Source: Amphiscolops sp. MND2022 (lineage: Eukaryota). From it: a DNA stretch of 64,000 nt. The position numbers were made by a program, and so were the translations under genes. The stretch is taken from the NCBI GenBank assembly GCA_964187785.1, contig OZ076409.1, positions 16,184,001-16,248,000 of the forward strand, in the 5' to 3' direction. Within the stretch, counting starts at the first letter, position 1. Every line of letters begins with the position of its first letter. The notes under the pieces were generated by a model, which made no database searches, was not told the origin of the DNA, and saw nothing but the letters and a program-made list of their open reading frames with translations. Positions 15,226 to 64,000 of this stretch are shown here, piece by piece.

Positions 15226-16093
15226 TCCTCTATTAATTACAGAAAATGATCTATTTGCAGACAATAGACCTTACCACTAAAAACAAAATTCTCAAGATCA
15301 ACAAAATTTACATTTTAACACTAACAATTTAACTGAAGATGATAACACCGATCAGGAAAATACAACCCAACAACAGAATCAACCTGAAAACTATAACGAT
15401 AATGAGTTTACTACCCAAGAATCTACAATTTCAACACATAATCCATCACAAACAGGGACATCAACATCAGTACATACTCAATCTTTTAGAGTTCCCACTA
15501 GAGTTGTAAACCAAAGACAAACTACACATAGTCCTCAATCTCACTTAGCTACATCTCCAAACCGTAATATAACTTTTAACCTTCCACATACAGATGACAC
15601 ACACGATGAAACCCATGATACATTACAGGATGATATTCTGACTACATCTAGTGCTCAGAATACTTCTGTTAATGTTGCATCTCCAACAAGAACTAATCCT
15701 GATTATACAAGATACATCACTCGACCTAGATATGATCCTCCATCAATTCCCTCCGCCTTTCGCTCAAACAGATCGACCTCTTCCAACAACAATTTTAATG
15801 ATAATCCCCAAACTTCCAATTGATATTACGATCCATTTAATTATAACTTTTATCCTCCATCAAATACAACTAACAATACAAATACCAACCAACATCACTC
15901 TCAAATTAATACAACTTCAACTACACAAAACCCCTTCATACAATTATCAAATACCAATACTTCACAGAATATATATTCTCAAAATCAAAGAACCTCGTAT
16001 ACTTCCACTTCTTTTTCTAATATCACAAAGGATTCTCAAAGAAGACTTCATAATCCTCCACTTACACATATACCAACTGATCCTCTGTATCAG

Positions 16094-24104: not shown

Positions 24105-24106
24105 CC

Positions 24107-26682: not shown

Positions 26683-27123
26683 CTGAGAAGCAATAACTTA
26701 AAAAACAAATTAACCTCAGTAAAAGTTCAAAAAATTATCAACTAAATTCTTCTCAGTAATAACTTTCATTCAAACCCAGATTCTCACTCGGACCGGTCTC
26801 TCCTTTTCAACTCAACAACAAATTCACTTGCCCACCACAACTCAACTCTCAACCAGAAGACTTCAACTGGATTTTCAGTCCATCTAAAAGACCGAAATCA
26901 CAGAAGTTTCTATTCCTGGAATAGATGTCACTGTGATTGTTGATGTTTTCAACCCATCATTGACTCAGTATTCCCATATTGTAAGTACAATTTAAACTTT
27001 AATTTTACCAAACAATTTAATGGATAAAAAAGATATAACGAAATTTTTCCTTATTATTAGAAATAAGATAATCAAACGTTATAATCATTATTTTAGCTCT
27101 ACAAAAACACGCAAGTTTAAATA

Positions 27124-28417: not shown

Positions 28418-28915
28418 CTGGTAATTATGGGATAATCACTTTAAAATTGTTAACACTTACCACTTAATCTCCTAACAACCTGTCAAAATTAATTGAGTCT
28501 ACACGTATATGCCTGATATGCACGATTATAATACATGCTTGATGTTAAAATACTCTTTTAAAATAAAATAACATAAAAAAATTCAATCACGACTTAAAAA
28601 TTTTCAACAAAATTCCTCAATTGCTCCTCCTTTTAATGGACCGAATTCAACAAATAAGTACTTATATGAAAGATATTTAAATACCCTTCAAAAGACTTCC
28701 AAAATACAACAACTTAATTCTTAAAATTAAAAAGTTATAATATCACAAAGTTCAATAACAAAATGTCAACTACGAAATTCTATTTTCAAAGAAACTTTAT
28801 TGTAAACAAACTAATCTATTTTAGGTGAATATCGTCACAACTGCTTCTTCAGCATTCTTTCCTCCTCGACATAGACTGCCCGATAGCTCCTCTTCTTTCA
28901 ATTTCTTCAGCTCGA

Positions 28916-29323
28916 TTGCGATCCTTGATCCAGAAAAAGCATTTAACGACATTAAATGCGCAGCTTAGAACAGACAAAAAGGCAGGCCCACATCTTACAA
29001 GGATGATATTGCTTAATATGTTCCAAATATTCCAAATAACAAGAATAAATTTCGACCAATATCTCCATATTCATAAACATCCTGACACTTATTCAACCCA
29101 ACGAGACGCCACTACCCAAACAGAACATACTACTATCAAGCCCAAACGTTTAGTACGAAATCTATCCAATAGAATGCGTTCTGAAATGGAAAAACAACGT
29201 CTAAATTCTTATTGGCCTTCAGACGATAACGATGATACTGACGAAGAACTTCAAAAAGACCCTCCAGAAGCACTTATAGATGATAATTATCCGCACAAAA
29301 CATATACTTACGTTTCTTTCTAA
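28916..29323 (+). pseudogene. Further accessory ORF fragment in giant element
   Basis: 135 open codons with acidic C-terminus; sense strand. Confidence 0.3.
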
Positions 29324-34060: not shown

Positions 34061-34084
34061 GACTTTACGTACGCAGATATTTTG

Positions 34085-43000: not shown

Positions 43001-43743
43001 TTACTTGCGTAACAGTGGTTTTAGGCGCACCACTAAGGGAAAAGATTATTCCAGTGCTTTTGAAAGACTGTCCACGCTGACTAAGTTATTTAAAAAAGTC
43101 TGATTGAGGGAATCGAACTCAAGACATTGGAATGGAAATCTAACACGCAACCACTACGCCATTGAATGTTGAAAAGATGTTAAAAATGGACCACGTTATT
43201 AGAAAGAGTCCAAAAATCCCTATGTTGAAAGATTTGCCGCCCTCCAAGGTAAGCATTTCAAATCAAAAATTGGACGAATTCAGAATGCTATGTTCGGTAT
43301 GTGTCAAATTAAACAACCAAGTTGGGTGCAATAACACTCTATCAATTCAAGTGCTGAACAAATTCCATCCCCGGGGACCGAACCCAAAGATACCAGAACA
43401 ACGCTATACCAAATCTAACCACCAACGCAACCTCTACGCCACGATATCTTGCGAAACAGTGGTTTTAGGCGCACCACTAAGGGAAAGATTATTCCAGTGC
43501 TTTTGAAAGACTGTCCCTGTTGACTAAGATATTAGAAAATTTTTGATTGAGGGAGTCCAACTCAAGACATTGGAATAGAAATCTAACACGCAACCACTTG
43601 GCCATTGATTGTTGAAAAGATGTGTAAAAATGGACAACGTTATTGGAAAGAGTCCAAAAATCCCTGTGTTGAAAGATTTGCCGCTTCCAAAGTAAGCATT
43701 CAAATTCAAATTTTAGACGAAATCAGAATGCTTTATTCGGTAT
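34085..43743. repeat. Tandem satellite, ~445-bp monomer, ~21-22 copies
   Basis: Recurring track ORFs at 444-448 bp spacing (42274, 42718, 43162; ends 38842, 39290, 39734). Confidence 0.97.
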
Positions 43744-44022
43744 AGTGTTTTTTCACACTCCTGAGTCGACTTTTGATAATACATGAAATTTCATATTTAA
43801 GCATACTAATTTATGCTTTTCAGCAAACATTTCCGTTATAGAGTCAAAATTTTGCTTTTTTTTTACAGATTTTCTAAAATAATTTGGTTTCATCGGATGT
43901 CAAAAACATGAAACTTTGTCTTTTTCTGGAAATTTCCCGCCAAAACAAGTTGTTGGCTGGTAATGGTAAGTCAGTACCGCAGATAGGGATCTCGCGCTCC
44001 AAAAATTGACTCTTTGCTTTTA

Positions 44023-45439: not shown

Positions 45440-46237
45440 TTTTTGTCAGAAATGTGGTTTAACTTCGGTGACAGTTTTGCAAAAGGGATCAAATTGAAAA
45501 GATAGCAAAAAACGGACAACGCCATTAGAAAGAGCGTCCAAAAAAACCCCCATGCTGAAATTTTCGCCGCCATCACTTGAATTTTCATTGAGTTATGTCA
45601 TTTTTACTATTTTCACAAAATGTGGTTTAACTTCGGTGACAGTTTTGAAAAAGGGGTCAAAATGAACAGATAGAAAAAAACGGACAACGGCATTGGAAAG
45701 AGGGCCCAAAATTACCCCTAAAACGTGTTTTTCACACTCCTGAGTCGACTTTTGATAATACATGGAATTTCATTTTTAAGCTTACTAATTTATGCTTTTC
45801 AGCATACATTTTCGTAATAGAGTCAAAATTTTGCTTTCTCACAATTTTTCTGGAATATTTTTGTTTCATCAGATGTCAATAACTTGAAACGTCGTCTTTT
45901 CATGAGAATTTCTCCTCAAAACAAGTTGTTGGCTGGTAATGGTAAGTCCGTACCGCAGATAGGACTCTCGCGCTCCAAAAATTGACTCTTTGCTTTTAGC
46001 CTAATTGTTGTGATATCCACGAGGCGTTACTCTGCCAAAATTGGAAATCTCTCATTTCTGAGTTAAATTAACTCAGCGAAACTGTCTTAAATTGTTTCTC
46101 TTCTTCAAACAACGTACCATTCTTACAAGCAATTTTATTGTACTGTATTAGAAAAACTACTGTTTTTCGAAACGTTACTTTAACTTTCTGGGCATTTTGC
46201 TCCTCATTGCCGACAAGGCAAACAATAATCCAACCTC

Positions 46238-48397
46238 ATGGATGAAACACCAACTCACGACAGTCAAAAGCCTTCGAAAACCTTGGATAATTCTCCACGA
46301 AATATTCGAAAAAACCAAGGTCAAAATTTCTTAGAAAATTCATTGGTTACAACAGGAGAAATTTCAAATACTTCGCCCAAATGTAGCAAAAAATTCTCGC
46401 CTTACAAATCACCGGCAGGCCATCCTAAAGAGGCGTCAATCTACACTTCGGATGGCAAATTTCAAGGCAGGGCTCCCCCTCAAAGCCCGAAAGACTCAAA
46501 GCGTAAAAACGCAAAAAACTTTACATCAAAAATTATCAACTCTCAGGAAACTATAAATGCCACAAACTTACCAAATTATCAACAACAACAGCCACAGTTA
46601 CCATTTACAACTCATCGATTGCCTCAAGACCCTAGCAAAAGAGTCAAAATGGTGGATTTCAACGAAGAAAATTTTACATGCAATTCTGGCCCAGAAATTA
46701 CGATAACGTATTCCGGCAACACACTGCAAAATAATATTACACCCACTTACACCAATGCAAAGCCAGCTCATCCTTCTACAACTGGCAACTCAAACTACAA
46801 CCCAAGGGAGGACTCTGGGCCAAATATCGCTCCAAACAACCCACCCAATGTGGAGAACGACCACAAAAACAAGAAAAATCCACTTCAAGAAAGTCAGGTA
46901 GAAAGCTATATTCCTACAACCCAAAACAACAAAAACTCTGAAGCTATTACTGTTGCGACCCAAATGCAACGTACTACGCTTCTCAATTTGCTAAATACAG
47001 GCCGATACGTTTCTCCTGAAGAACGTAGACGTATCCACAATGCTATTGAGGCAATAGCTAACGAAAGTTCCAGTAATGCCTTTAGTGAAATCTTTCCTGA
47101 ACTCTCTGCCCAGAATCAGCAAAAACAAACAAATGCTGATGACAGCAGTCATGCTACAAAACAACCAGCTTCCAACTACAATTCAAGAGCACTAGAACAA
47201 GCAATCGCTGCCACAATTAACGCCATAAACCCACCAGCTGAGGAACTATACACACAAACAATCAGAAATAGCGGATCCCCAAATGAATCAAAGAACAGCC
47301 ACCCACAATCCTACTCTCAGGCAACCTTTTCAAGGTCTCCTACCACGCAAGTGGTAAGCAAAATCCACAAGCTAAGAATAGTGCCTCCCTTGAGAAAAGA
47401 ACATTTCTCCAATAACAACACGTTGGAAGCCGAAATTACAAGAGCATACAAAGATATCCTAACAGCCTTCTCGCCAAATATACGAAATTTGATAACGATA
47501 TCACGAACCAACGTCAAAGTGGCAAACAAAACATACCAAGTCCTCCAGGTAATTGCTCCAGAAAGCGCTGAGCCAGACATTACCAGAATGAAACTGAATG
47601 GTCTAACGATCATGGGCAGAACTGTCTTTCCGACATCTGAGGACTTCTGGCAGGTCCGGAATTCATTCTACCCAAAAACACCGACCATACGAATCAGCAA
47701 TGTCCCAGTGCTATGCGATGACGATGCTCTAATTGAAGCTCTACAATTCCCATCATTCCTTGAATTTGGTCTAAAAGAAAGGGAAACAAAACAGACAGAA
47801 ATTGGCCCAGTTCATACTGGGAAAACTGCTATACAAATAAAGATAAACTCTGAAGATGAAGAAGCCGAGATGCGATCCTGGTCCTTTCATAAAGCCTACA
47901 CTTGCCCAGCAGAATGGCTAGGAGTCGAAATTCCAGCCAGCATACCGAAACTCCACATATGCAAGAAATGCAAAGAAGAAAAGATATCTCAATTCCGAGG
48001 CCACGAAGAGGAATGGTGCAGAATACGCAGAACCCCTCTCACTCCTCCAGTATCCGAAATCACAGAAGGGGCATCCACTAGCGTCATGCCTGAAGAAAGA
48101 AACAAAGCACAACTTCAATCAGTAGAAGCCCCAGGAGCCGAAAACATTCGGTCCGAAGATAGGCAGATCGACAGCGACAACCCAGATGAAGACGACTCTT
48201 CAGATAATCAAGATGACAACTGGCAAACAGTACAGAAGAAAGGACAGAAGAGAACCAAAAAGCAACCCTCAGAAGCTTCCAAAAACTCTCGAAACAGCAG
48301 CCCTGTGAAAGAACCCACCGCAAAGCAAGCAGCTCTACAACCAATCTGTATCAACAACAAACCCAACCCTCAAAAAACGGTAAATAATGATACTTAA
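46238..48397 (+). CDS. ORF1 protein (low-complexity N-terminus, RRM-like region, CCHC knuckle), 719 aa
   Basis: YPKTPTIRISNVP...HTGKTAIQI...CKKC-x10-H-x4-C; DNWQTVQKK basic tail as in L1/Tx1 ORF1. Confidence 0.9.
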   Translation: MDETPTHDSQKPSKTLDNSPRNIRKNQGQNFLENSLVTTGEISNTSPKCSKKFSPYKSPAGHPKEASIYTSDGKFQGRAPPQSPKDSKRKNAKNFTSKIINSQETINATNLPNYQQQQPQLPFTTHRLPQDPSKRVKMVDFNEENFTCNSGPEITITYSGNTLQNNITPTYTNAKPAHPSTTGNSNYNPREDSGPNIAPNNPPNVENDHKNKKNPLQESQVESYIPTTQNNKNSEAITVATQMQRTTLLNLLNTGRYVSPEERRRIHNAIEAIANESSSNAFSEIFPELSAQNQQKQTNADDSSHATKQPASNYNSRALEQAIAATINAINPPAEELYTQTIRNSGSPNESKNSHPQSYSQATFSRSPTTQVVSKIHKLRIVPPLRKEHFSNNNTLEAEITRAYKDILTAFSPNIRNLITISRTNVKVANKTYQVLQVIAPESAEPDITRMKLNGLTIMGRTVFPTSEDFWQVRNSFYPKTPTIRISNVPVLCDDDALIEALQFPSFLEFGLKERETKQTEIGPVHTGKTAIQIKINSEDEEAEMRSWSFHKAYTCPAEWLGVEIPASIPKLHICKKCKEEKISQFRGHEEEWCRIRRTPLTPPVSEITEGASTSVMPEERNKAQLQSVEAPGAENIRSEDRQIDSDNPDEDDSSDNQDDNWQTVQKKGQKRTKKQPSEASKNSRNSSPVKEPTAKQAALQPICINNKPNPQKTVNNDT

Positions 48398-51300
48398 TCT
48401 TGTTAATCTTGTATGTGTGAACATCAGAGGCCTTGCTAACCCAGCAAAGCTTCTCGAAATCTGTGAAAAAAGTAAAACCTTAGATAAAAACCAACAGTCA
48501 TGTATTTTCATACAAGAAACAAAATTAACCAAAATGAAGGAGGAACATATACGAATCTTAGAAAAATATAAACTAAAGAGTAAAGAGGTTCCTGCTACAG
48601 GAAACTCAGGGGGGCTTCTAACACTCATTCCAAAAAACATTGATCATCAAATACTCATGAAAAGCCTTAGCTGCCTTGCAGTGAAAATAATTAGAAATAA
48701 TTGTGAAATGGTCCTCGTTAACACATATATCAACCCCAAAGATTTCAAAGCTAGAAATTTCTGTGCGTCTATTCAGGAGCCAAACCTAAACCCATCCCAA
48801 AACATCCTCGTAGCAGGGGATTTGAATGCAATAGATGCTGAAGACATAGGAAAAACTAAAGAACTTTGCTACCCTATTAAAAACAACGATATCAGAGTAA
48901 TTCGTCATAAAATAATACAGTCTCATTCGAACTCTTTACTGTTAAAGGACATGGCAAAGGAACAAAATGAAATTTTACCGACACATTTCGATCGTAGAAC
49001 AAAAAAATTCAGCAGAATTGACTATGTCTTCAGCAACTATACGAATCAGAATCAGAAAATCGAAATTGTCAATTTCACGTCATCGGATCATAAGTGCCTC
49101 TTTTTAAAAAACCAGGAAGAAAACACCAATAATTCTCCCTCCTACTGGAAACTAAATGACTCTGTGCTGGACGATAGTAATCGCATTAATGAAATCCTGA
49201 AAACCTCAATTTCAAAGCTTCAGAACAAAAGCATGCTAACTGAAACATACGATGAATTTAAAGCAAGTATTAGAGATGACCTTCGGCAATTATGCATTGA
49301 AAAAAGAAATGCTGAAAACATTGTTGAAAAACAACTCAAAAATAACCTAAGACAACTTGAACTTAAACTTTCAGAGAGTGCAAATTCAATGGAATTAATT
49401 GCAAAAATCCAACAAGAAGTTGATCGAAAAAATGACGAGTTGGGCGTACTACTGGACAAACGCAACCAACAAGAACTGAAAAAAATAAAAAATTTCTTTA
49501 ACGAAGCCTTTGAAGGCAATCCTAAACATGTTAAACAATTAGTATCAGCCCTCCGTCTGAGCACAAGAATTTCAAAATTGGAAAAAGACAGCGGTGAAAA
49601 AATTCAATCTCAAAATGATATAGTTGCGGAACTAACCTCATTCTATAAAAAACTTTATCAGTACAATGCTCCTGGAAATCGAAGCACAACTGGGTCCTCC
49701 ATACAACAGAAGAAATACCTCGAGAAATACTTGAAAAGAATTGAGAATAGGCTTGCTACCTATGATAGGACGAATATAAATGAAGATGAAATCTTAGAAT
49801 ACGAAGTTGAAAAAGCAATTCTAAAACTGAATAAAAACAGTGCCCCAGGACCGGATGGTCTCACCGCTGGCCTTTTCCAAAATCAAATAAAATTCTTTGT
49901 GCCTTTGCTTACAGACCTATTTAATGAAATTTTAACTAAAAACCGGCCTCCTCCTTCATTTACTCTTGCAATAATCAAACTACTCCCGGAAAAATCTAAC
50001 ACAATAAAAAAAGCCTCTGATCTTAGGCCAATAAGTCTAATAAACACAGACCAAAAAATACTATCACACGTGCTAGCTAATCGAATCAAACCACTTTTTG
50101 ACACAATAATAGGACAACATCAATATGCTCATCTTACAGAACGAAATATCCACACTGCAATAACGAAAATTAGACAATATTCAACGTGCCTGAAGAAAAA
50201 CGACAGCTTATGCGCTCTAGATTTTACAAAAGCATTTGACTGCGTCAACAGGGACTTCCTAATTGCCATATTGAAACAACTACCAATATCAGAAACAACT
50301 ATAAAACTAATCGAGCAAGTATATAAAAACACAACATCCATCATTGACATCAACTCTGAATTCTCCGAACCAATAATTATTACAAAAGGGGTAAGACAAG
50401 GATGCCCCCTCTCTGCATTGCTCTTCATCCTAGTTATAGAACCTCTACTTGAAAAAATACAACGATCAAAAAAATTAAAAACACCAAATCATCAAAAAAT
50501 CATTGCCTTTGCAGATGATATAACAGTGTCCATCAAAAACAACTCAATAAACAATTTAATTAAAATCCTTGACGAGTTTGAAAATGTCTCTGGTCTCGCT
50601 ATTAATTACGAAAAGTCAGAGCTTCTAACCAAAAATCAAAAAATTTTATTCACAAACCCAGAAAAAAACTGAAAATTGTCAATCGAGTCAAAATCCTTGG
50701 AGTGTTCATAACAACAAAATCAAGTATAGACAGTGAAACAAAAAACAAGATCGACACAATTGTTAACCAATCAACAAAGTTCACCTCTCAAAACATGAGT
50801 TTCAGAGCCAGAGCTATTAACCTAGAAACATTCATTCTATCCAAAATATTCTACCAATTACGACACTTCGCGAAAAACAAATCATATATGAAAAAATTAA
50901 ACTCCAAAATAGTGGACCAGTTCTGGAATCATAAGAAACACAACGTTAATCAAGAAATTTTACATACCAGTAGACAAGAAAGCGGAATAGGACTAAAGAA
51001 TCTGAACAAAGCCGTAACAATAGCAAAAATCATGAATTTGAAAGTTTCCCTCCAAGGTAAAAACAATCAAAATAATCACAACGATTTCCAAGTTTCAAAC
51101 TGGTACAAGCAAATTGCAAAAGACCTGAAAAACGAAAACATTGAGATAATAGAAGTATCCAATGATACTCTAAAGATACAACACCTCTTTCAACCCATTG
51201 AAATAACCAGAAACACAAAATCGAGCGAAATTCTCTCAATAATACAAAAATCAACAATCAATATTGCATGCATCCCCCGTGTTGCAAAAACGGCCATGAA

Positions 51301-51706
51301 ACAAGGAATAACCATGGACTGTGTCCAGGGGGTTCTGGCAAAACTATGGAACAGAAAAAATCTACGATCATTTGATAAAAATTACATATACTGTTTCATG
51401 ATGAACGCCTACCTAGATAAACAAGAGAATTGGGGAAAAAACCTTGTTCCTCATCCTCTCTGCTTCCAATGCGGAACTCATTTCGAAACATTCAGTCATT
51501 TAATGTTTGACTGTCCACAAACACAGAACTTGAAAACAAAACTCAAATACACAAATTGGGATCAAGTCTGGAACGATAAAACAGGCAAATCACAAAAACT
51601 ACTAGTCGCCTTTATCCTATCGTCATGGTCGGAAGAAGAAGGGTCGTACCTAAAGTTTTTTCGAAACACGTATACTTCCAACTACCAACCACCTCAAGAA
51701 ACCTAA
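48387..51706 (+). CDS. ORF2 protein (AP endonuclease, RT, C-terminal Zn finger) with one frameshift near 50662-50668
   Basis: NIRGL, IQETK, AGDLN, SRIDY, SDH; APGPDG, RPISLIN, DFTKAFD, GVRQGCPLS, FADD; resumes in another frame as VKILGVF; CFQC..ETFSHLMFDC. Confidence 0.93.
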
Positions 51707-51970
51707 ACAGAGCCAACCGACACCCAAGCCGAAACACCCAAAACAACATAAAAAAACAAAAAAAAACTTCAAAAAAAAAACGAAAAAGTAATCCAGTTCA
51801 CACATACATCCTGAAGCATTTATATTATACTTATGTTACTCTCAGATTTTGTTGTACCATTTATTGTACCTTTTGTTACTTTTATTACCTATGTGGTTTT
51901 GTTGTACTTCCATTAGACTAAAGTTTGTAACATTTTTGTTAGCGTAAAGTTTACAATAAAGTCTTCAAAA

Positions 51971-52314: not shown

Positions 52315-52873
52315 TTTTTGTCAGAAATGTGGTTTAACTTCGGATACAGTTTTGCAAAAGGTGTCAAATTGAAAAGATAGCAAAAAACGGACAACGCCAT
52401 TAGAAAGAACGTCCAAAAAAACCCCCATGCTGAAATTTTCGCCGCCATCACTTGAATTTTCATTGAGTTATGTCATTTTTACTATTTTCACAAAATGTGG
52501 TTTAACTTCGGTGACAGTTTTGCAAAAGGGGTCAAAATGAACAGATAGCAAAAAACGGACAACGGCACTGGAAAGAGGGCCCAAAATTACCCCTAAAACG
52601 TGTTTTTCACACTCCTGAGTCGACTTTTGATAATACATGGAATTTCATTTTTAAGCTTACTAATTTATGCTTTTCAGCATACATTTTCGTAATAGAGTCA
52701 AAATTTTGCTTTCTCACAATTTTTCTGGAATATTTTTGTTTCATCAGATGTCAATAACTTGAAACGTCGTCTTTTCATGAGAATTTCTCCTCAAAACAAG
52801 TTGTTGGCTGGTAATGGTAAGTCCGTACCGCAGATAGGACTCTCGCGCTCCAAAAATTGACTCTTTGCTTTTA

Positions 52874-53007
52874 GCCTAATTGTTGTGATAAACTTATTAA
52901 ATAGGTAAGTATTCCAACCCTATTGATAAGTTTTATTTGAAAGCAGACTGCGAAAGTGGTCTGCTGCCCAATTTTTGAACAAGGAACAAGCTAGTCTGCA
53001 CTAACTT
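52874..53007 (+). ncRNA. Putative SL RNA gene, intact consensus copy
   Basis: Leader GCCTAATTGTTGTGATAAACTTATTAAATAG|GTAAGT; stem ATAAACTTATTAAATAGG/CCTATTGATAAGTTTTAT; GAAA-loop hairpin AGCAGAC..GTCTGCT; Sm site AATTTTTGA; 3' hairpin; ends approximate. Confidence 0.8.
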
Positions 53008-53099: not shown

Positions 53100-53218
53100 G
53101 GCTACGACCATACCATGTTGAATGCACCGGTTCTCGTCCGATCACCGAAGTTAAACAACATAGGGCCTGGTTAGTACTTGGATGGGAGACCGCTTGGGAA
53201 CACCAGGTGTTGTAGCCT
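53100..53218 (+). rRNA. 5S rRNA
   Basis: Canonical 5S, T6 terminator; TATAAA about 27 nt upstream. Confidence 0.98.
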
Positions 53219-53794
53219 TTTTTGTCAGAAATGTGGTTTAACTTCGGTGACAGTTTTGCAAAAGGGGTAAAATTGAAAAGATAGCAAAAAACGGACAACG
53301 CCATTAGAAAGAGCGTCCAAAAAAACCCCCATGCTGAAATTTTCGCCGCCATCACTTGAATTTTCATTGAGTTATGTCATTTTTACTATTTTCACAAAAT
53401 GTGGTTTAACTTCAATGACAGTTTTGCAAAAGGAGTCAAAATGACCAGATAGCAAAAAACGGACAACGGCATTGGAAAGAGGGCCCAAAATTACCCCTAA
53501 AACGTGTTTTTCACACTCCTGAGTCGACTTTTGATAATACATGGAATTTCATTTTTAAGCTTACTAATTTATGCTTTTCAGCATACATTTTCGTAATAGA
53601 GTCAAAATTTTGCTTTCTCGCAATTTTTCTGGAATAAGTTTGTTTCATCAGATGTCAATAACTTGAAACGTCGTCTTTTCATGAGAATTTCTCCTCAAAA
53701 CAAGTTGTTGGCTGGTAATGGTAAGTCCGTACCGCAGATAGGACTCTCGCGCTCCAAAAATTGACTCTTTGCTTTTAGCCTAATTGTTGTGATA

Positions 53795-55777
53795 CGGCGT
53801 TACTCTGTCAGCCTGCAAACTTTGTTTGCACAGCGCCATCTTGCAAATTTTGCAGCAAAAGTTGCAAAAGTAATGACTAATTTGAACACGAGTGAGCTTG
53901 ATCAACATCATAATGAAAATGTTGAGCAAAATTGTTACAAAAATGCAGTTATTTCCTTGTCGAAATCGAACTCAAATATGGACAAATTACCAATTATTAT
54001 CAACTTTGCCTTACCACTGACATCTGAAATGTTCAAAAACAGCAAATTACTGGATTCAATGTTTGTGGAAGCTGTTATGGCCGTCAAAAACCGACTTAAC
54101 TCCAATGAAATTACCATCTTCAAAACTACAATTTTACGCAACAAAGGCAATTTGAAGTGTATTACTGTGATCATTCCTTAAAAACTTGAAAATGCAGCTT
54201 CCTCTCTTATTCACGAGGGCATTACTCTTCGCAATCGGAAAATACGGCCTTATTCTGTCAATTATTCCAACCCGAACAACAATGTCTATCCAAAAAGATT
54301 ACCAATATCTTTCCGAAACCTACCACACTTTCTGACGGATGAGGATATTTTGAGTAGCTGTGGTCTTCAAAACTTCAAATTTAGTAGCAAAATTTTTCAT
54401 CAACAACGACGACTTCCTGATAGCAGCCTTTTTTATACAGGAGAGGCAAGAATTACAGTTTTAATTGACAATGAGAATGAGGAAAGTTTACTACAAAACT
54501 GGGCCAATAATGCATATGACAAAATGTTTAGTTCCAGTGGCATTTTTTTCAAATGTTGCTGTATCCCACTCCTCGAATGCTCTTTATGCGTCAATGAGAA
54601 CCTTCCCAGTGCTCATCAACAATCAAGATGCCCAAAACAACTATCAGACGAACAGCAAATACAGAAAAACAGTGAATCTCAGAACCAGAAGTTAACAACT
54701 GACTACGTTATGGAAACTGCAGAAACAGAGCCAATGTCTAATGAACCTGAACTGTCAGATTCAGATGATGCTGAACCAATCTCAAAGGCACCAAAGCAGA
54801 CCGATGATGGTACTGAAACCGAATGCAACAACAACGTGGCAGAAACTGAACAACCATGCATTAACAACTCAAAGAAAGATACCATTCCTATGCAAAAACC
54901 TAAACTAATGCATCGCTCAACTGAATGGAAATCCTCAACAGACCTTGCCCGAAATCAAGCAGATGACCAACAGTCAACGGCAAAGCATGGATATCATGAA
55001 TACCCATTCTTTTTGGAAAAGAAACAAAACAAAATACTGGCACCCGAAACTATTTTCAACGAAATACCTCCTATAAAAGAACATGTGATCAAAACCCAAC
55101 AAACTTCTGGCTACATCAATACACTAGACAAGGAAAAGAAAATTCAAAGGACCTTTTCACTCGTACAACCACTGAAGAAAGAAAAACTCGAAGATCTTTT
55201 ATCTGAATCAAACTGGAAACATTCTGACTCTAACACTATTTTAACTTCTCATTTGGAATTTTACTCATTGATCCGGAAGTTTGATCCATTCTATGATGCT
55301 ACAAACCACCAAATTTACACTATTAATCTGGAGAATAAAATTGTACAAGTTTTCACTGCAGTTGAAAACTTATACAATGAAAACAAAAACTAAACTGAAA
55401 AATTTCGGACCTTTTCGACTGGAACTTTAAAGTTCTAAATCTCTACAATACCATCATCAATCAACCCAATTCCCAATTCTTTTCGAGCACTAGTTGTTCG
55501 CAACCTGTATGCAAAAAACGGGTTTTGAAAACAAACTCCTTCCAGGAGCAAACATCTTTTTTCATACATTCTCCAAACTACATTATACTAACTTCATACC
55601 TAAAAAAAAAACATTCCCATTTTGGCGCTTTCTCAAAAATGCCATAACCAAGCATCTTCATCTACATACTTCAGCTTTTTCAACACTTCAGTTACTCATA
55701 TACTCATTTTATACCTATACCTTAGACTTCATTACTTTTTACTTGTAAATTCTCAGTTTTCAATAAATTCTTTAAAA
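53795..55777 (+). mobile_element. Non-autonomous ORF1-only retroelement, family A copy 1
   Basis: Perfect 17-bp TSD 53778-53794 and 55778-55794; no RT or endonuclease; AATAAA..TTTAAAA end. Confidence 0.9.
53873..55393 (+). pseudogene. Family A ORF1-like gene with one premature stop
   Basis: TAA at 54179-54181 where copy 2 has TAC; otherwise colinear with 60578-62098. Confidence 0.88.
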
Positions 55778-55914
55778 GCCTAATTGTTGTGATAAACTTA
55801 TTAAATAGGTAAGTATTCCAACCCTATTGATAAGTTTTATTATTTGAAAGCAGACTGCGAAAGTGGTCTGCTGCCCAATTTTTGAACAAGGAACAAGCTA
55901 GTCTGCACTAACTT
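55778..55914 (+). ncRNA. Putative SL RNA sequence downstream of insertion
   Basis: Consensus with 3-nt insertion (TTATTATTTG). Confidence 0.65.
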
Positions 55915-56006
55915 AAAAGTTACGCGTATTTTGACCGAGAAAATTTTCGTATCATTGTACGTAATTTTGTTGTTAAGCATATAAAGCTATTGATTCTACA
56001 ATGATC

Positions 56007-56125
56007 GGCTACGACCATACCATGTTGAATGCACCGGTTCTCGTCCGATCACCGAAGTTAAACAACATAGGGCCTGGTTAGTACTTGGATGGGAGACCGC
56101 TTGGGAACACCAGGTGTTGTAGCCT
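56007..56125 (+). rRNA. 5S rRNA
   Basis: Canonical 5S. Confidence 0.98.
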
Positions 56126-56701
56126 TTTTTGTCAGAAATGTGGTTTAACTTCGGTGACAGTTTTGCAAAAGGGGTCAAATTGAAAAGATAGCAAAAAACG
56201 GACAACGCCATTAGAAAGAGCGTCCAAAAAAACCCCCATGCTGAAATTTTCGCCGCCCTCACTTGAATTTTCATTGAGTTATGTCATTTTTACTATTTTC
56301 ACAAAATGTGGTTTAACTTCGGTGACAGTTTTGCAAAAGGGGTCAAAATGAACAGATAGCAAAAAACGGACAACGGCATTGGAAAGAGGGCCCAAAATTA
56401 CCCCTAAAACGTGTTTTTCACACTCCTGAGTCGACTTTTGATAATACATGGAATTTCATTTTTAAGCTTACTAATTTATGCTTTTCAGCATACATTTTCG
56501 TAATAGAGTCAAAATTTTGCTTTCTCGCAATTTTTCTGGAATATTTTTGTTTCATCAGATGTCAATAACTTGAAACGTCGTCTTTTCATGAGAATTTCTC
56601 CTCAAAACAAGTTGTTGGCTGGTAATGGTAAGTCCGTACCGCAGATAGGACTCTCGCGCTCCAAAAATTGACTCTTTGCTTTTAGCCTAATTGTTGTGAT
56701 A

Positions 56702-58132
56702 CTGCGGTAGCAGCAATTATTTGACCAAATTCATTCTCTCTCGCATCTGCTGAGGCAGGGACGATTATCTCACTTGAAAGAATGCCTAATTTCCTTACAT
56801 TGGACTTTATAATACCTTACTCCAAAGAAGAAATTACTAATCCTTCTCTAAAGCTTGTTACTTACAAAAGCTTTCTTTGCTCGTTACTTAAATGTTTACC
56901 TAGTGACGCTGTTAAACGCGTGACCTGCATGAAATCGCACGTGTACAAACATGCGCCGCACGAAAAGAAACTTGAGAGCGTCAAAGTTATCGGTCCAATT
57001 TCATTACAAAACGAGTTTAATTCCATTATTTCTGATGGAATTTTGTTCAAAACTCGCAAGATTTATGCTCTACAAAACCATGATGTTACGTCCAATGCTT
57101 ACCCCAAGCAATTTACGATCAAATTTCGTAATTTACCACACTTCTTTTCTGATACCGATGTTATTTCGGCTTGCAATTTGAAAGATTTCAAACTTTCAAA
57201 GTTACGACACCAATTAGAGAAACTTTCTGAGGAAATTGAAACCTACACAGGCATTTGTTATGCGGATGTGGAAATCCAGGACGAAGCCCAATTACAACAG
57301 CTCATTTCATGGAATGAAACCAGCTTTTTGAACAAATACTATCTAGAAGAAATTCCATTTAAATGCCAAATTCAAATATTACTACAATGCGATTTCTGCA
57401 AACAAAAGAAGCTCCAGTTTTTGGGGCACCATGTACGCCAATGCAAAGCCAAAAAGACACAATTAGAACCAGAATCTGAGGAAGATAGCATCTCAACTAC
57501 GAAAACAAATGAAGAAAAAGAACTAGAAGCCACAGATGCAAACAAGAATAACCCAGAACATACTTTCTATATTGATTTAGAAAAATGCCAAATTCGAAAC
57601 ATACATGACATGGACGAACTCCATAAAGGATTTAGCAAGCTTCTTGCTTTACAGGAATGCAAGCCTGTGAATGTCTTGAATGACAACAATATAGTGATAA
57701 ACCAACTACGACATGTGAAGAATATTACTGAAGAAAAACAGCGGAAGCTTTTCAAACAACAAAACATATGGGGAAGTCCTTCATCAGACGTCCCAATCAA
57801 GAACTTCTCAGAGTTTTGTGAACTCCGGGGAAAGCTAGATGTGTTCTACGACTCAACAAAAGGCGAAGAAACCCTTTACCTGATGAACCTATCCAAGAAA
57901 GTGACCCACATTTTCAAAAAGAAACAACAACCAAACTAACAAAACTACATTATACTAATTTTCAAACTTTGATTTCCATGTTAAATCAAAACTCTCATAT
58001 TATACAATCATCACCAAGTCTTTCATTTACTTAATACTATAAGTATGCTAAGTTATTCATACTCAACACTTTAGTATTAATGTAAAGACTATTTGATTTA
58101 TAAAGGCAAATTTCCAAATACATTCTTTAAAA
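56702..58132 (+). mobile_element. Non-autonomous ORF1-only retroelement, family B copy 1
   Basis: TSD 56685-56701 and 58133-58149; single ORF; TTCTTTAAAA end. Confidence 0.9.
56782..57939 (+). CDS. Family B ORF1-like protein, 385 aa
   Basis: YPKQFTIKFRNLPHF, YTGICYADV, CDFC-x9-H-x4-C, plus C-terminal domain shared with family A. Confidence 0.88.
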   Translation: MPNFLTLDFIIPYSKEEITNPSLKLVTYKSFLCSLLKCLPSDAVKRVTCMKSHVYKHAPHEKKLESVKVIGPISLQNEFNSIISDGILFKTRKIYALQNHDVTSNAYPKQFTIKFRNLPHFFSDTDVISACNLKDFKLSKLRHQLEKLSEEIETYTGICYADVEIQDEAQLQQLISWNETSFLNKYYLEEIPFKCQIQILLQCDFCKQKKLQFLGHHVRQCKAKKTQLEPESEEDSISTTKTNEEKELEATDANKNNPEHTFYIDLEKCQIRNIHDMDELHKGFSKLLALQECKPVNVLNDNNIVINQLRHVKNITEEKQRKLFKQQNIWGSPSSDVPIKNFSEFCELRGKLDVFYDSTKGEETLYLMNLSKKVTHIFKKKQQPN

Positions 58133-58149
58133 GCCTAATTGTTGTGATA

Positions 58150-59579
58150 CTGCGGTAGCAGCAATTATTTGACCAAATTATTCTCTCTCGCATCTGCTGA
58201 GGCAGGGACGATTATCTCACTTGAAAGAATGCCTAATTTCCTTACATTGGACTTTATAATACCTTACTCCAAAGAAGAAATTACTAATCCTTCTCTAAAG
58301 CTTGTTACTTACAAAAGCTTTCTTTGCTCGTTACTTAATTGTTTACCTAGTGACGCTGTTAAACGCGTGACCTGCATGAAATCGCACGTGTACAAACATG
58401 CGCCGTACGAAAAGAAACTTGAGAGCGTCAAAGTTATCGGTCCAATTTCATTACAAAACCAGTTTAATTCCATTATTTCTGATGGAATTTTGTTCAAAAA
58501 TCGCAAGATTTATGCTCTACAAAACCATGATGTTACGTCCAATGCTTACCCCAAGCAATTTACGATCAAATTTCGTAATTTACCACACTTCTTTCCTGAT
58601 ACCGATGTTATTTCGGCTTGCAATTTGAAAGATTTCAAACTTTCAAAGTTACGACACCAATTAGAGAAACTTTCTGAGGAAATTGAAACCTACACAGGCA
58701 TTTGTTATGCGGATGTGGAAATCCAGGACGAAGCCCAATTACAACAGCTCATTTCATGGAATGAAACCAGCTTTTTGAACAAATACTATCTAGAAGAAAT
58801 TCCATTTAAATGCCAAATTCAAACATTACTACAATGCGATTTCTGCAGACAAAAGAAGCTCCAGTTTTTGGGGCACCATGTACGCCAATGCAAAGCCAAA
58901 AAGACACAATTAGAACCAGAATCTGAGGAAGATAGCATCTCAACCACGAAAACAAATGAAGAAAAAGAACTAGAAGCCACAGATGCAAACAAGAATAACA
59001 CAGAACATACTTTCTATATTGATTTAGAAAAATGCCAAATTCGAAACATACATGACATGGACGAACTCCATAAAGGATTTAGCAAGCTTCTTGCTTTACA
59101 GGAATGCAAGCCTGTGAATGTCTTGAATGACAACAATGTAGTGATAAACCAACTACGACATGTGAAGAATATTACTGAAGAAAAACAGCGGAAGCTTTTC
59201 AAACAACAAAACAGATGGGGAAGTCCTTCATCAGACGTCCCAATCAAGAACTTCTCAGAGTTTTGTGAACTCCGGGGAAAGCTAGATGTGTTCTACGACT
59301 CAACAAAAGGCGAAGAAACCCTTTACCTGATGAACCTATCCAAGAAAGTGACCCACATTTTCAAAAAGAAACAACAACCAAACTAACAAAACTACATTAT
59401 ACTAATTTTCAAACTTTGATTTCCATGTTAAATCAAAACTCTCATATTATACAATCATCACCAAGTCTTTCATTTACTCAATACTATAAGTATGCTAAGT
59501 TATTCATACTCAACACTTTAGTATTAATGTAAAGACTATTTGATTTATAAAGGCAAATTTCCAAATACATTCTTTAAAA
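58150..59579 (+). mobile_element. Non-autonomous ORF1-only retroelement, family B copy 2 (tandem)
   Basis: TSD 58133-58149 and 59580-59596; near-identical to copy 1. Confidence 0.9.
58229..59386 (+). CDS. Family B ORF1-like protein, 385 aa
   Basis: First ATG at 58229 (track starts at an upstream TTG); 10 aa differences from copy 1. Confidence 0.88.
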   Translation: MPNFLTLDFIIPYSKEEITNPSLKLVTYKSFLCSLLNCLPSDAVKRVTCMKSHVYKHAPYEKKLESVKVIGPISLQNQFNSIISDGILFKNRKIYALQNHDVTSNAYPKQFTIKFRNLPHFFPDTDVISACNLKDFKLSKLRHQLEKLSEEIETYTGICYADVEIQDEAQLQQLISWNETSFLNKYYLEEIPFKCQIQTLLQCDFCRQKKLQFLGHHVRQCKAKKTQLEPESEEDSISTTKTNEEKELEATDANKNNTEHTFYIDLEKCQIRNIHDMDELHKGFSKLLALQECKPVNVLNDNNVVINQLRHVKNITEEKQRKLFKQQNRWGSPSSDVPIKNFSEFCELRGKLDVFYDSTKGEETLYLMNLSKKVTHIFKKKQQPN

Positions 59580-59713
59580 GCCTAATTGTTGTGATAAACT
59601 TATTAAATTGGTAAGTATTCCAACCCTATTGATAAGTTTTATTTGAAAGCAGACTGCGAAAGTGGTCTGCTGCCCAATTTTTGAACAAGGAACAAGCTAG
59701 TCTGCACTAACTT
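59580..59713 (+). ncRNA. Putative SL RNA sequence downstream of insertion
   Basis: Leader ends AAATTG|GTAAGT (variant); hairpins and Sm site intact. Confidence 0.65.
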
Positions 59714-59805
59714 AAAAGTTACGCGTATTTTGACCGAGAAAATTTTCGTATCATTGTACGTAATTTTGTTGTTAAGCATATAAAGCTATTGATTCTACAA
59801 TGATC

Positions 59806-59924
59806 GGCTACGACCATACCATGTTGAATGCACCGGTTCTCGTCCGATCACCGAAGTTAAACAACATAGGGCCTGGTTAGTACTTGGATGGGAGACCGCT
59901 TGGGAACACCAGGTGTTGTAGCCT
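59806..59924 (+). rRNA. 5S rRNA
   Basis: Canonical 5S. Confidence 0.98.
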
Positions 59925-60499
59925 TTTTTGTCAGAAATGTGGTTTAACTTCGGTGACAGTTTTGCAAAAGGGGTCAAATTGAAAAGATAGCAAAAAACGG
60001 ACAACGCCATTAGAAAGAGCGTCCAAAAAAACCCCCATGCTGAAATTTTCGCCGCCATCACTTGAATTTTCATTGAGTTATGTCATTTTTACTATTTTCA
60101 CAAAATGTGGTTTAACTTCGGTGACAGTTTTGCAAAAGGGGTCAAAATGAACAGATAGCAAAAAACGGACAACGGCATTGGAAAGAGGGCCCAAAATTAC
60201 CCCTAAAACGTGTTTTTCACACTCCTGAGTCGACTTTTGATAATACATGGAATTTCATTTTAAGCTTACTAATTTATGCTTTTCAGCATACATTTTCGTA
60301 ATAGAGTCAAAATTTTGCTTTCTCGCAATTTTTCTGGAATATTTTTGTTTCATCAGATGTCAATAACTTGAAACGTCGTCTTTTCATGAGAATTTCTCCT
60401 CAAAACAAGTTGTTGGCTGGTAATGGTAAGTCCGTACCGCAGATAGGACTCTCGCGCTCCAAAAATTGACTCTTTGCTTTTAGCCTAATTGTTGTGATA

Positions 60500-62480
60500 C
60501 GGCGTTACTCTGTCAGCCTGCAAACTTTGTTTGCACAGCGCCATCTTGCAAATTTTGCAGCAAAAGTTGCAAAAGTAATGACTAATTTGAACACGAGTGA
60601 GCTTGATCAACATCATAATGAAAATGTTGAGCAAAATTGTTACAAAAATGCAGTTATTTCCTTGTCGAAATCGAACTCAAATATGGACAAATTACCAATT
60701 ATTATCAACTTTGCCTTACCACTGACATCTGAAATGTTCAAAAACAGCAAATTACTGGATTCAATGTTTGTGGAAGCTGTTATGGCTGTCAAAAACCGAC
60801 TTAACTCCAATGAAATTACCATCTTCAAAACTACAATTTTACGCAACAAAGGCAATTTGAAGTGTATTACTGTGATCATTCCTTACAAACTTGAAAATGC
60901 AGCTTCCTCTCTTATTCACGAGGGCATTACTCTTCGCAATCGGAAAATACGGCCTTATTCTGTCAATTATTCCAACCCGAACAACAATGTCTATCCAAAA
61001 AGATTACCAATATCTTTCCGAAACCTACCACACTTTCTGACGGATGAGGAAATTTTGAGTAGCTGTGGTCTTCAAAACTTCAAATTTAGTAGCAAAATTT
61101 TTCATCAACAACGACGACTTCCTGATAGCAGCCTTTTTTATACAGGAGAGGCAAGAATTACAGTTTTAATTGACAATGAGAATGAGGAAAGTTTACTACA
61201 AAACTGGGCCAATAATGCATATGACAAAATGTTTAGTTCCAGTGGCATTTTTTTCAAATGTTGCTGTATCCCACTCCTCGAATGCTCTTTATGCGTCAAT
61301 GAGAACCTTCCCAGTGCTCATCAACAATCAAGATGCCCAAAACAACTATCAGACGAACAGCAAATACAGAAAAACAGTGAATCTCAGAACCAGAAGTTAA
61401 CAACTGACTACGTTATGGAAACTGCAGAAACAGAGCCAATGTCTAATGAACCTGAACTGTCAGATTCAGATGATGCTGAACCAATCTCAAAGGCGCCAAA
61501 GCAGACCGATGATGGTACTGAAACCGAATGCAATAACAACGTGGCAGAAACTGAACAACCATGCATTAACAACTCAAAGAAAGATACCATTCCTATGCAA
61601 AAACCTAAACTAATGCATCGCTCAACTGAATGGGAATCCTCAACAGACCTTGCCCGAAATCAAGCAGATGACCAACAGTCAACGGCAAAGCATGGATATC
61701 ATGAATACCCATTCTTTTTGGAAAAGAAACAAAACAAAATACTGGCACCCGAAACTATTTTCAACGAAATACCTCCTATAAAAGAACATGTGATCAAAAC
61801 CCAACAAACTTCTGGCTACATCAATACACTAGACAAGGAAAAGAAAATTGAAAGGACCTTTTCACTCGTACAACCACTGAAGAAAGAAAAACTCGAAGAT
61901 CTTTTATCTGAATCAAACTGGAAACATTCTGACTCTAACACTATTTTAACTTCTCATTTTGAATTTTACTCATTGATCCGGAAGTTTGACCCATTCTATG
62001 ATGCTAAAAACCACCAAATTTACACTATTAATCTGGAGAATAAAACTGTACAAGTTTTCACTGCAGTTGAAAACTTATACAATGAAAACGAAAACTAAAC
62101 TGAAAAAATTCGGACCTTTTTGACTGGAACTTTAAAGTTCTAAATCTCTACAATACCATCATCAATCAACCCAATTCCCAATTCTTTTCGAGCACTAGTT
62201 GTTCGCAACCTGTATGCAAAAAACGGGTTTTGAGAACAAACTCCTTCCAGGAGCAAACATCTTTTTTCATACATTCTCCAAACTACATTATACTAACTTC
62301 ATACCAAAAAAAAACATTCCCATTTTGGCGCTTTCTCAAAAATGCCATAACCAAGCATCTTCATCTACATACTTAAGTTTTTTCAACACTTCAGTTACTC
62401 ATATACTCATTTTATACATATACCTTAGACTTCATTACTTTTTACTTGTAAATTCTCAGTTTTCAATAAATTCTTTAAAA
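60500..62480 (+). mobile_element. Non-autonomous ORF1-only retroelement, family A copy 2
   Basis: Perfect TSD 60483-60499 and 62481-62497. Confidence 0.9.
60578..62098 (+). CDS. Family A ORF1-like protein, 506 aa from first ATG
   Basis: YPKRLPISFRNLPHF, YTGEARITV, CSLC-x8-H-x4-C, acidic linker, C-terminal domain; track start GTG lies inside the TSD. Confidence 0.88.
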   Translation: MTNLNTSELDQHHNENVEQNCYKNAVISLSKSNSNMDKLPIIINFALPLTSEMFKNSKLLDSMFVEAVMAVKNRLNSNEITIFKTTILRNKGNLKCITVIIPYKLENAASSLIHEGITLRNRKIRPYSVNYSNPNNNVYPKRLPISFRNLPHFLTDEEILSSCGLQNFKFSSKIFHQQRRLPDSSLFYTGEARITVLIDNENEESLLQNWANNAYDKMFSSSGIFFKCCCIPLLECSLCVNENLPSAHQQSRCPKQLSDEQQIQKNSESQNQKLTTDYVMETAETEPMSNEPELSDSDDAEPISKAPKQTDDGTETECNNNVAETEQPCINNSKKDTIPMQKPKLMHRSTEWESSTDLARNQADDQQSTAKHGYHEYPFFLEKKQNKILAPETIFNEIPPIKEHVIKTQQTSGYINTLDKEKKIERTFSLVQPLKKEKLEDLLSESNWKHSDSNTILTSHFEFYSLIRKFDPFYDAKNHQIYTINLENKTVQVFTAVENLYNENEN

Positions 62481-62614
62481 GCCTAATTGTTGTGATAAAC
62501 TTATTAAATAGGTAAGTATTCCAACCCTATTGATAAGTTTTATTTGAAAGCAGACTGCGAAAGTGGTCTGCTGCCCAATTTTTGAACAAGGAACAAGCTA
62601 GTCTGCACTAACTT
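62481..62614 (+). ncRNA. Putative SL RNA sequence downstream of insertion
   Basis: Consensus leader, donor, hairpins, Sm site. Confidence 0.65.
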
Positions 62615-62706
62615 AAAAGTTACGCGTATTTTGACCGAGAAAATTTTCGTATCATTGTACGTAATTTTGTTGTTAAGCATATAAAGCTATTGATTCTACA
62701 ATGATC

Positions 62707-62825
62707 GGCTACGACCATACCATGTTGAATGCACCGGTTCTCGTCCGATCACCGAAGTTAAACAACATAGGGCCTGGTTAGTACTTGGATGGGAGACCGC
62801 TTGGGAACACCAGGTGTTGTAGCCT
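62707..62825 (+). rRNA. 5S rRNA
   Basis: Canonical 5S. Confidence 0.98.
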
Positions 62826-63401
62826 TTTTTGTCAGAAATGTGGTTTAACTTCGGTGACAGTTTTGCAAAAGGGGTCAAATTGAAAAGATAGCAAAAAACG
62901 AACAACGCCATTAGAAAGAGCGTCCAAAAAAACCCCCATGCTGAAATTTTCGCCGCCATCACTTGAATTTTCATTGAGTTATGTCATTTTTACTATTTTC
63001 ACAAAATGTGGTTTAACTTCGGTGACAGTTTTGCAAAAGGGGTCAAAATGAACAGATAGCAAAAAACGGACAACGGCACTGGAAAGAGGGCCCAAAATTA
63101 CCCCTAAAACGTGTTTTTCACACTCCTGAGTCGACTTTTGATAATACATGGAATTTCATTTTTAAGCTTACTAATTTATGCTTTTCAGCATACATTTTCG
63201 TAATAGAGTCAAAATTTTGCTTTCTCGCAATTTTTCTGGAATATTTTTGTTTCATCAGATGTCAATAACTTGAAACGTCGTCTTTTCATGAGAATTTCTC
63301 CTCAAAACAAGTTGTTGGCTGGTAATGGTAAGTCCGTACCGCAGATAGGACTCTCGCGCTCCAAAAATTGACTCTTTGCTTTTAGCCTAATTGTTGTGAT
63401 A

Positions 63402-64000
63402 CTGCGTGTGTCAGCAATTATTTGCTAACTCTACTCTCACTGCTGCGGCAGAGAAGACGAAAATTACCTGAACAATGCCTTTATTGACAGCAGAATTCAT
63501 CATTCCTTACACAAAAGAAGAAATTACCAGCCCAAACATAAAGCAAGCTGTTTACAAAGAATTCCTTTGCAAGCTTTTACATGCTTTATCGCCTACTCAT
63601 ATTGACAGCGTGACATGCATTAAATCGTATGTGTCCAAACATGCGCCAGCGCATGAGCATGAAAAGAAGCTTGAATGCATCAAAATTATTGCTCCAAACT
63701 CGATAGAAAACGACTTCAAAAACCTACTTCTTAAAGGAATTCCTTACAAAAACCGGATAATTTATGCATTCCAAAACAGTGATGTTTATTCTAACTCCTA
63801 CCCAAAGCAATTCACTTTGAAATTCCGCAATTTACCACACTTTTTAGAAGATGGAGAGATCGTGGAGGCTTGTAATCTGCAAGAGTACAAAATTTCCAAA
63901 TTACGCCACCAAAGAGTAAGAATTTCTGACGACATCGAAGCCTTTACTGGAATCTGTTATGCTGAAATAGAGATTGCCAATCAATGCCAATTAGAAAACA
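63402..64000 (+). mobile_element. Family C insertion (related to B), truncated by window end
   Basis: Starts right after GCCTAATTGTTGTGATA (63385-63401); 5' end CTGCG..CAGCAATTATTTG resembles family B. Confidence 0.85.
63475..64000 (+). CDS. Family C ORF1-like protein, partial (absent from ORF track)
   Basis: Hand translation MPLLTAEFIIPYTKEEITSP...YPKQFTLKFRNLPHFL...FTGICYAEI, open to window end; colinear with family B. Confidence 0.85.
   Translation, partial: MPLLTAEFIIPYTKEEITSPNIKQAVYKEFLCKLLHALSPTHIDSVTCIKSYVSKHAPAHEHEKKLECIKIIAPNSIENDFKNLLLKGIPYKNRIIYAFQNSDVYSNSYPKQFTLKFRNLPHFLEDGEIVEACNLQEYKISKLRHQRVRISDDIEAFTGICYAEIEIANQCQLEN

Follow-up and report, generated by a model that had tools for sequence, protein, structure and literature searches.

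Non-autonomous long interspersed nuclear elements (LINEs) that keep their first open reading frame (ORF1) form a named class, which includes HAL1, HeT-A, and Ag-Sponge (PMC5786205, PMC5753468). A type I ORF1 is defined by one or more RNA recognition motifs (RRMs) directly upstream of a zinc knuckle of the CCHC type (PMC4120745). Co-transcription with the target gene is described for R2 and is noted as strengthening site-specific integration (PMC4494074). The window considered here, a 64,000-nucleotide (nt) stretch of the Amphiscolops sp. MND2022 genome (contig OZ076409.1; C1:16184001-16248000 of a 1.07-Gb assembly), contains three families of short elements, A, B, and C, inserted in spliced-leader (SL) RNA genes in the same position as a neighboring LINE. 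They encode an ORF1 homolog, and neither endonuclease nor reverse transcriptase (RT). A, B, and C are probably selfish ORF1-only elements, whose own protein would help their own RNA to form a particle that is usable by the second protein (ORF2) of the LINEs at this position, here called site 1.

Families A and B have two copies each in the window, all on the + strand. A copy 1 (53795..55776, 1982 bp) has an ORF from 53873, with a frame that runs on to 55393, and A copy 2 (60500..62479, 1980 bp) has an intact ORF of 506 amino acids (60578-62098). B copy 1 (56702..58131, 1430 bp; ORF 56782-57939, 385 amino acids) is followed in tandem by B copy 2 (58150..59578; ORF 58229-59386), with one copy of the target duplication between them. 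The 5' part of family C (63402..64000, +), which is 1603 bp in full and has an ORF of 387 amino acids from 63475, extends past the window end. The LINE of the window, La, belongs to the L1 group and occupies site 1 at 46016..51969 (+). Its ORF1 is at 46238-48397, and its ORF2 (+) is split by a frameshift into 48387-50672 and 50606-51706; a copy of La on C12 has a single intact ORF2 of 1106 amino acids.

The preliminary description of this DNA regarded the proteins of A, B, and C as deeply diverged homologs of the LINE ORF1 on account of colinear motifs. The quoted motifs are present in the given order in the LINE (46238-48397), A (60578-62098), B (56782-57939, 58229-59386), and C (63475 to the window end), and the homology is confirmed by profile-profile comparison. 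In hhalign, seven ORF1-only cores match eight SL-site LINE cores over 214 columns with a probability of 99.7 and an E of 1.3e-25, against a probability of at most 4.8 in five column-shuffled controls. A phmmer search of the genome with the LINE core recovers C (E 3e-10) and A (E 1e-9). The ORF1-only cores are 20-31% identical to LINE ORF1 cores. As also described, the coding DNA has no visible alignment to the LINE: it has no BLASTN match to any of 11 LINE representatives, and the matches obtained, of 34-48 nt, are confined to the 3' ends.

The statement that the frames stay open holds for most array copies, as the ORF is intact in 30/36 A, 8/8 B, and 13/15 C copies of near-full length. It does not hold for A copy 1, in which the ORF from the ATG at 53873 meets a TAA stop at 54179-54181, where A copy 2 has TAC. 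The dN/dS between B and C, set beforehand as the test of long-term purifying selection, is 0.25 over 218 core codons (Nei-Gojobori; pN/pS interval 0.33-0.56) and thus not near 1. The value between the cores of A3 and E, two further ORF1-only families, is 0.16 by the same method, and the other ten family pairs have saturated synonymous sites and pN/pS intervals below 0.8. Between B and C the interval is 0.37-0.60 for the C-terminal domain and includes 1 for the linker. Within families, pN/pS is 0.56 in A, 0.61 in B, and 0.31 in C. A frame without benefit in cis would be expected to decay; since these frames were kept across a divergence that saturates synonymous sites, a cis benefit is suggested, and it would explain selection on elements that lack ORF2. 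Packaging in cis is the best inference from these values, which would fit capture of ORF2 as well.

From about 44 kb to its end, the window is a tandem array with a 904-bp unit, which comprises a 5S rRNA gene and an SL RNA gene. Seven Rfam matches to 5S occur in this array, including 53100..53218 (+; RF00001, 117.5 bits) and further copies at 56007-56125, 59806-59924, and 62707-62825. The uninterrupted SL RNA gene at 52873..52985 (+; 3' end approximate) is the empty form of the insertion target. It contains a 31-nt exon from 52874 and a GT donor, and a U-rich Sm-type site comes after the two stem-loops into which its sequence folds. The exon is identical over 31 nt to the published SL of the acoel Symsagittifera roscoffensis (PMC9911081). 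As SL trans-splicing is described for about 30% of the genes of this worm (PMC9911081), the burden carried by the SL arrays is of consequence to the host.

La, both A copies, both tandem B copies, and the C copy are located at an identical SL position. Insertions at site 1 are flanked by an 18-bp duplication, which consists of an adenine plus SL nt 1-17; around A copy 1, its left copy is at 53777..53794 (+) and its right copy at 55777-55794. The census comprises 774 kb, namely the window and 710 kb from arrays on C1, C12, and C13, and covers part of the arrays. In it are 383 5S genes and 134 insertions, and 257 of its SL genes have a promoter and are uninterrupted. Site 1 has 69 ORF1-only elements (two including non-element flank) vs 37 LINEs, along with four short pieces, and site 2, at the SL exon/intron border, has seven LINEs and 17 short elements of 79-113 bp. 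The LINE users of site 1 comprise eight families, La to Lh, with ORF1 cores 31-71% identical to La. Its ORF1-only users in the arrays are A, A2, B, C, and D, and 14 further loci yielded A3, E, F, G, and H, with F, G, and H met as decayed copies only. ORF1-only copies occur in four arrays on three large contigs, and A, B, and C are each present with array-specific promoter flanks. Target duplications, 5'-truncated copies, and the presence at several loci are hallmarks of retrotransposition. Copies within a family are about 99% identical, which suggests recent amplification.

Site 2 is used by a separate LINE family with an ORF1 of 397 amino acids (e.g., C1:16612186). The short element at this site (e.g., C1:16256664, and 16 similar ones) is non-coding, has a 3' end similar to that of the site-2 LINE, and is a passenger without an ORF that resembles a short interspersed nuclear element (SINE). 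Off-array insertions at the loci L102, L103, L109, and L113 have apparent duplications of about 50, 185, and 305 bp, not 18 bp. These could arise from a second junction that is poorly defined without SL homology, or from local tandem repeats.

The ends of the ORF1-only elements resemble those of several LINEs. All site-1 families have a similar 3' motif of about 15 nt, with no poly(A), and 8-9 nt separate an AATAAA-like hexamer from the junction; in Ld, no match to the hexamer is present even with one mismatch. The last 42 nt of C are identical to La, which is likely the partner family of C. Seven of 37 A copies end in the last 25 nt of Lb, with the switch inside a short stretch common to both; these copies form a subfamily that is set apart on body sequence alone (weak support, 69) and is present in three arrays. 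The heads of A, A2, A3, D, E, and F have 12-20 nt in common with the heads of La/Lf, Lh, Le, and Lb. The shared lengths are 20 nt for F and Lb, 14 for D and Lh, 13 for E and Le, and 12 for A and La, compared with a 95th percentile of 8 and a maximum of 11 in shuffled sequences.

Shared 5' ends also occur within each group. La and Lf have a 5' end in common with ORF1 cores 42% identical (C12:56298446 vs C12:56388749 and C13:13186508), and Lf2 has a head different from Lf. A, A2, and A3 have about 95 nt of the 5' end in common with cores 38-46% identical (window A vs L058 and L102). The 5' ends are swapped among families. A composite of a 3'-shortened C, an SL duplication, and a 26-nt Le tail occurs at C12:56233067-56234687 and C13:13152942-13154559 with differing promoter variants, and is possibly a tail capture caught in progress.

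Nine 5' junctions outside the SL genes (Lc, Ld, Lf2, and A3) start with an SL piece without promoter; eight are clear, and one is in a rearranged tandem. These off-array copies suggest that the element RNA likely starts at the SL gene start. SLACS RNA starts at the start of the interrupted SL gene. Full-length copies have family-specific left junctions, of 16 nt in 7/7 Ld copies and of 14 or 12 nt in Lg, as expected if the junction is copied through RNA. The left junction of 5'-truncated Ld, Lb, and A copies is 18-19 nt, and that of one truncated C is 10. At the 3' side, 6/6 off-array junctions continue with AGCC, and in 3/3 3'-truncated copies the break is immediately ahead of an internal AGC (two of these may be one event). 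An origin of the SL piece at the 5' end by trans-splicing was considered and rejected, as this would add the whole 31-nt exon instead of 14-18 nt.

The preliminary description implied that the ORF1-only families had diverged from the neighboring LINE, and this is not supported by the ORF1 phylogeny. A midpoint-rooted tree of 23 rows has the ten ORF1-only families on one side of a branch with support 96/96. In the 59-row tree with database homologs, from which partial sequences and near-duplicates were excluded, they form a clade at 99/93, with Lx as sister at 100/98. Lx is a low-copy, dispersed, and mostly decayed LINE lineage, which carries ORF2 and, within the stretches fetched, no SL site. 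When the ORF1-only set is forced with La and Lb, a group picked after the first tree was seen, the approximately unbiased (AU) test rejects the arrangement at p-AU 1.9e-6, and with it the descent of A, B, and C from the window LINE. Genome searches scored the best 150 candidates, and 14/14 extra loci with A- or B-like matches were ORF1-only or distant Lx at about 30%. The window LINE is thus a distant cousin of the ORF1-only families, not the parent, and likely their service provider. Further autonomous LINE families outside the SL arrays (L128-L131, L133-L135) have a related ORF1, 29-39% identical to La, and some are locally clustered.

The Pfam family RVT_1 is above cut-off in La ORF2, and Exo_endo_phos and zf-RVT are below it. 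Against solved structures, the partner ORF2 matches human L1 ORF2p at E 1e-55 (residues 7-873) vs R2 at E 2e-27. In the RT tree, which is without a named Tx1 reference, the partner RTs make up a separate group (29 rows, 100/100). By its apurinic/apyrimidinic endonuclease (APE), RT, and C-terminal zinc motif, with the RT closest to L1, the partner LINE is assigned to the L1 group.

The AlphaFold2 model of the B protein, from 55 sequences, has a mean predicted local distance difference test (pLDDT) of 89.7. It comprises two tandem RRM-like domains from residue 4 (about 4-99 and 109-199), a knuckle (about 202-222), a disordered linker (235-254), and a C-terminal domain (about 260-385), with no coiled coil. 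The expected RRM and zinc-knuckle architecture is thus recovered in the model. The best Foldseek matches are the tandem-RRM proteins HuD, HuR, and Sex-lethal (E 1e-4 to 7e-4), and VIA detects RRMs at Z 6-7, with the RRM of human L1 ORF1p at Z 5.8 (root-mean-square deviation, rmsd, 2.9; 81 aligned) not standing out among them. A, B, and C have a knuckle C-x2-C-x8/9-H-x4-C after RRM2, with a loop longer than in the gag knuckle, and their ORF1 agrees with type I as defined in PMC4120745. This ORF1 is not of the L1 type, which has a coiled coil, a single RRM, a C-terminal domain of its own type, and Pfam Transposase_22. No Pfam family is above cut-off for any ORF1, and a single unrelated family is found in 1/55 proteins. 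The core profile has one weak, unrelated match among solved-structure sequences (E 0.02).

The C-terminal domain of about 125 amino acids is present in 65/70 ORF1-only frames vs 0/71 LINE ORF1 frames, counts in which copies are partly redundant and the profile was built from six of the families. In B copy 1 it is encoded by 57547..57936 (+). Modeled alone, it has a predicted alpha/beta fold with pLDDT 89 and a predicted template modeling score (pTM) of 0.83. A genome search gives 85 matches, with the strong ones at ORF1-only copies and a few weak ones dispersed. Foldseek found no match at E 0.001 in PDB and a viral library, the best VIA Z is 4.1 (rmsd 4.4, 89 aligned), and Atlas scores are under 0.9; on these models, neither a known nor a new fold is established. 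An origin from ORF2 is not supported, as the profile matched no ORF2 frame among 215 long frames. Complex prediction for the C-terminal domain of C with La ORF2 residues 1-868, run without alignments, gave no answer, with a score of 0.00. The domain occurs in 11/168 database proteins, all nearest to ORF1-only cores. One of these, P0038, combines a C-like core with an A2-like C-terminal domain (100/100), and an exchange of domains among subclades is thereby suggested. The database homologs P0015, P0018, P0019, P0021, P0038, and P0048 are mostly on contigs of 1.4-1.7 kb.

A cycle consistent with these features would begin with an RNA polymerase that reads from the SL gene start through 14-18 nt of SL and the element into the downstream SL copy. 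The protein made from this RNA would coat it by means of the two RRMs. The partner ORF2 would then recognize the 3' motif common to all site-1 families and nick the SL gene, with priming where the AGCC of the RNA anneals to the nicked strand. Pairing of the target with the SL piece of the RNA 5' end would give a precise left junction. Occasional template switches may provide a new LINE tail or head, by which the clade could change partners and outlive its LINE of origin. The C-terminal domain likely helps the particle to reach ORF2 or the SL locus, which is the weakest step.

Several observations weigh against this account. The cycle as a whole is derived from genome sequence, and the cis action of the protein is deduced from selection. 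The knuckle is lost in A3, D, and E, and the C-terminal domain of D is cut short, so neither part is required in every family. A coding-free element of 113 bp moves at site 2 (17 short insertions), which indicates that an own ORF1 is not needed everywhere. Array duplication adds copy number in the form of near-identical copy pairs. The heads of B, C, G, and H and the tails of A2, A3, B, E, G, and H have no LINE match beyond 7-10 nt, and the SL piece is missing from one Lc 5' end (L023/L024), which is located in a decayed region. Both ORF1 trees have midpoint roots, and the group for the AU test was picked with the first tree already known.

Other explanations account for part of the data. One is mutual dependence of the kind put forward for HeT-A and TART, in which the ORF1-only protein would co-assemble with LINE particles and aid SL delivery, and the LINE would give the RT. 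The excess of ORF1-only copies at the common site, the retention of the extra domain across families, and the precedent in PMC2173066 and PMC5786205 agree with this. It is nevertheless rather unlikely, as the LINEs possess an endonuclease domain and a selected ORF1 of their own (La-Lb core pN/pS 0.14-0.25), the site-2 LINE is without an ORF1-only companion among 24 site-2 insertions, and the ORF1-only cores share so little identity with LINE ORF1. A competitor or host-tolerated suppressor, which would capture ORF2 or poison LINE particles, spare SL genes, and be kept partly for the host, is improbable. The elements themselves interrupt SL genes and keep inserting, broken copies exist (A 6/36, C 2/15), no fixed single-locus copy is present among those examined, and selection on the element is sufficient to explain the open frames. 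This is so even though many copies are present beside few intact LINEs, the new domain could be an ORF2-binding module, and L1TD1, a gene derived from ORF1, has been discussed as having a dominant-negative role (PMC4161310).

The families could also be recent deletion derivatives of unsampled autonomous LINEs, and HAL1-type elements usually originate as deletion derivatives (PMC5753468, PMC5786205). The deep divergence would then be a property of the parents rather than of the ORF1-only state. The limit of 150 candidates and a possibly incomplete assembly leave some room for such parents. This origin is very improbable, as all of the extra loci proved to be ORF1-only or distant Lx, the strong C-terminal-domain matches are at ORF1-only copies, and it would call for ten separate deletions, in as many unseen parents. 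Least credible is the passive spread of old insertions in which retrotransposition has ceased and the SL+5S array changes only through unequal crossing-over and gene conversion. The C1 array does have a duplicated block of about 35 kb, which gives near-identical copy pairs, but the same families are found outside arrays, next to unrelated families in tandem, and in arrays that differ in their promoter variants, and 5'-truncated copies have their own junctions. Beyond selfish ORF1-only elements, the data leave room for a bolder and doubtful proposal of a self-standing, protein-coding retro-parasite lineage. It would have outlived its parent LINE, gained a folded domain that docks on foreign ORF2 or SL-gene machinery, used the host SL promoter and cap, and hopped among at least eight unrelated LINE partners by swapping ends and even the C-terminal domain.

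The remainder of the window contains two LTR (long terminal repeat)-retrotransposon-like elements, at 14400-29300 (+) and 5900-10360 (-), both with broken gag-, protease-, RT-, and integrase-like frames. The + strand element also has env-like frames and a strong C-over-G skew. A coiled-coil-rich frame of 515 amino acids at 3048-4595 is probably a host-gene exon. A diverged tandem repeat of about 445 bp (33000-43750) has a stretch in common with the SL+5S spacer, and adjoining it, a truncated SL promoter junction at 31417 marks a decayed array edge. Elsewhere in the arrays, a DNA-transposon-like insertion of 1050 bp with inverted ends occupies a 5S gene (C13:13143586-13144635).

The service of ORF1 to a LINE and the way in which non-autonomous elements obtain ORF2 despite its cis preference are open questions. 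Ten ORF1-only families, eight partner LINEs, and one 18-bp target form a matched natural set for them, which bears on the fit of tail and ORF2, the cis action of ORF1, and the binding partner of the added domain. The data also point to an APE-type LINE group that targets SL genes, while the SL-targeting elements named in PMC4640811 have the other endonuclease type. Site-specific LINEs with target sequence at both RNA ends are of interest as precise insertion tools. In the literature covered, with Repbase and subscription journals outside the scope, no report of retroelements in acoel SL genes was found.

Like the HAL1, HeT-A, and Ag-Sponge class (PMC5786205, PMC5753468), the Amphiscolops families have ORF1 only and would need ORF2 in trans, as the shared site and tails suggest. 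They share the L1-group origin of HAL1. In contrast to HAL1, which by its descriptions in these sources arose several times by internal L1 deletion, the ten families have one origin, and their ORF1 is not from the current partner but sister to Lx, with ends from several LINE families. They also differ in the two-RRM and knuckle ORF1, the added domain, the site-specific insertion, and the lack of a poly(A) tail. HeT-A of Drosophila telomeres is similar in that it is ORF1/Gag-only, outnumbers its partner at one common target, and forms tandem copies (PMC2173066). It is of the Jockey clade and inserts at chromosome ends, whereas L1-group partners, internal SL+5S arrays, and an RNA-gene target are found here; the Gags of HeT-A and TART are described as very similar (PMC2173066), unlike the 20-31% identity to the partner ORF1s.

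The Tx1-clade elements Keno (U2 snRNA), Kibi, and Koshi are likewise APE-type L1-group LINEs at a fixed site of a multicopy repeat (PMC4494074), but here the target is the SL RNA gene, in which eight LINE families share site 1 and a ninth uses site 2. SLACS/CRE of trypanosomatids and NeSL of nematodes also insert in SL genes, and carry a restriction-like endonuclease (PMC4640811) in place of the N-terminal APE domain of the present LINEs. SINEs with LINE-derived tails resemble the families in having a 3' end common to and exchanged between partner LINEs (PMC5786205). In contrast to these SINEs, the Amphiscolops elements encode a protein and have no small-RNA head beyond the SL piece. What appears new in these elements is that they arose once, from a different LINE, and radiated into ten families, together with their added domain, their use of SL genes, and a probable switching of partners by end capture.

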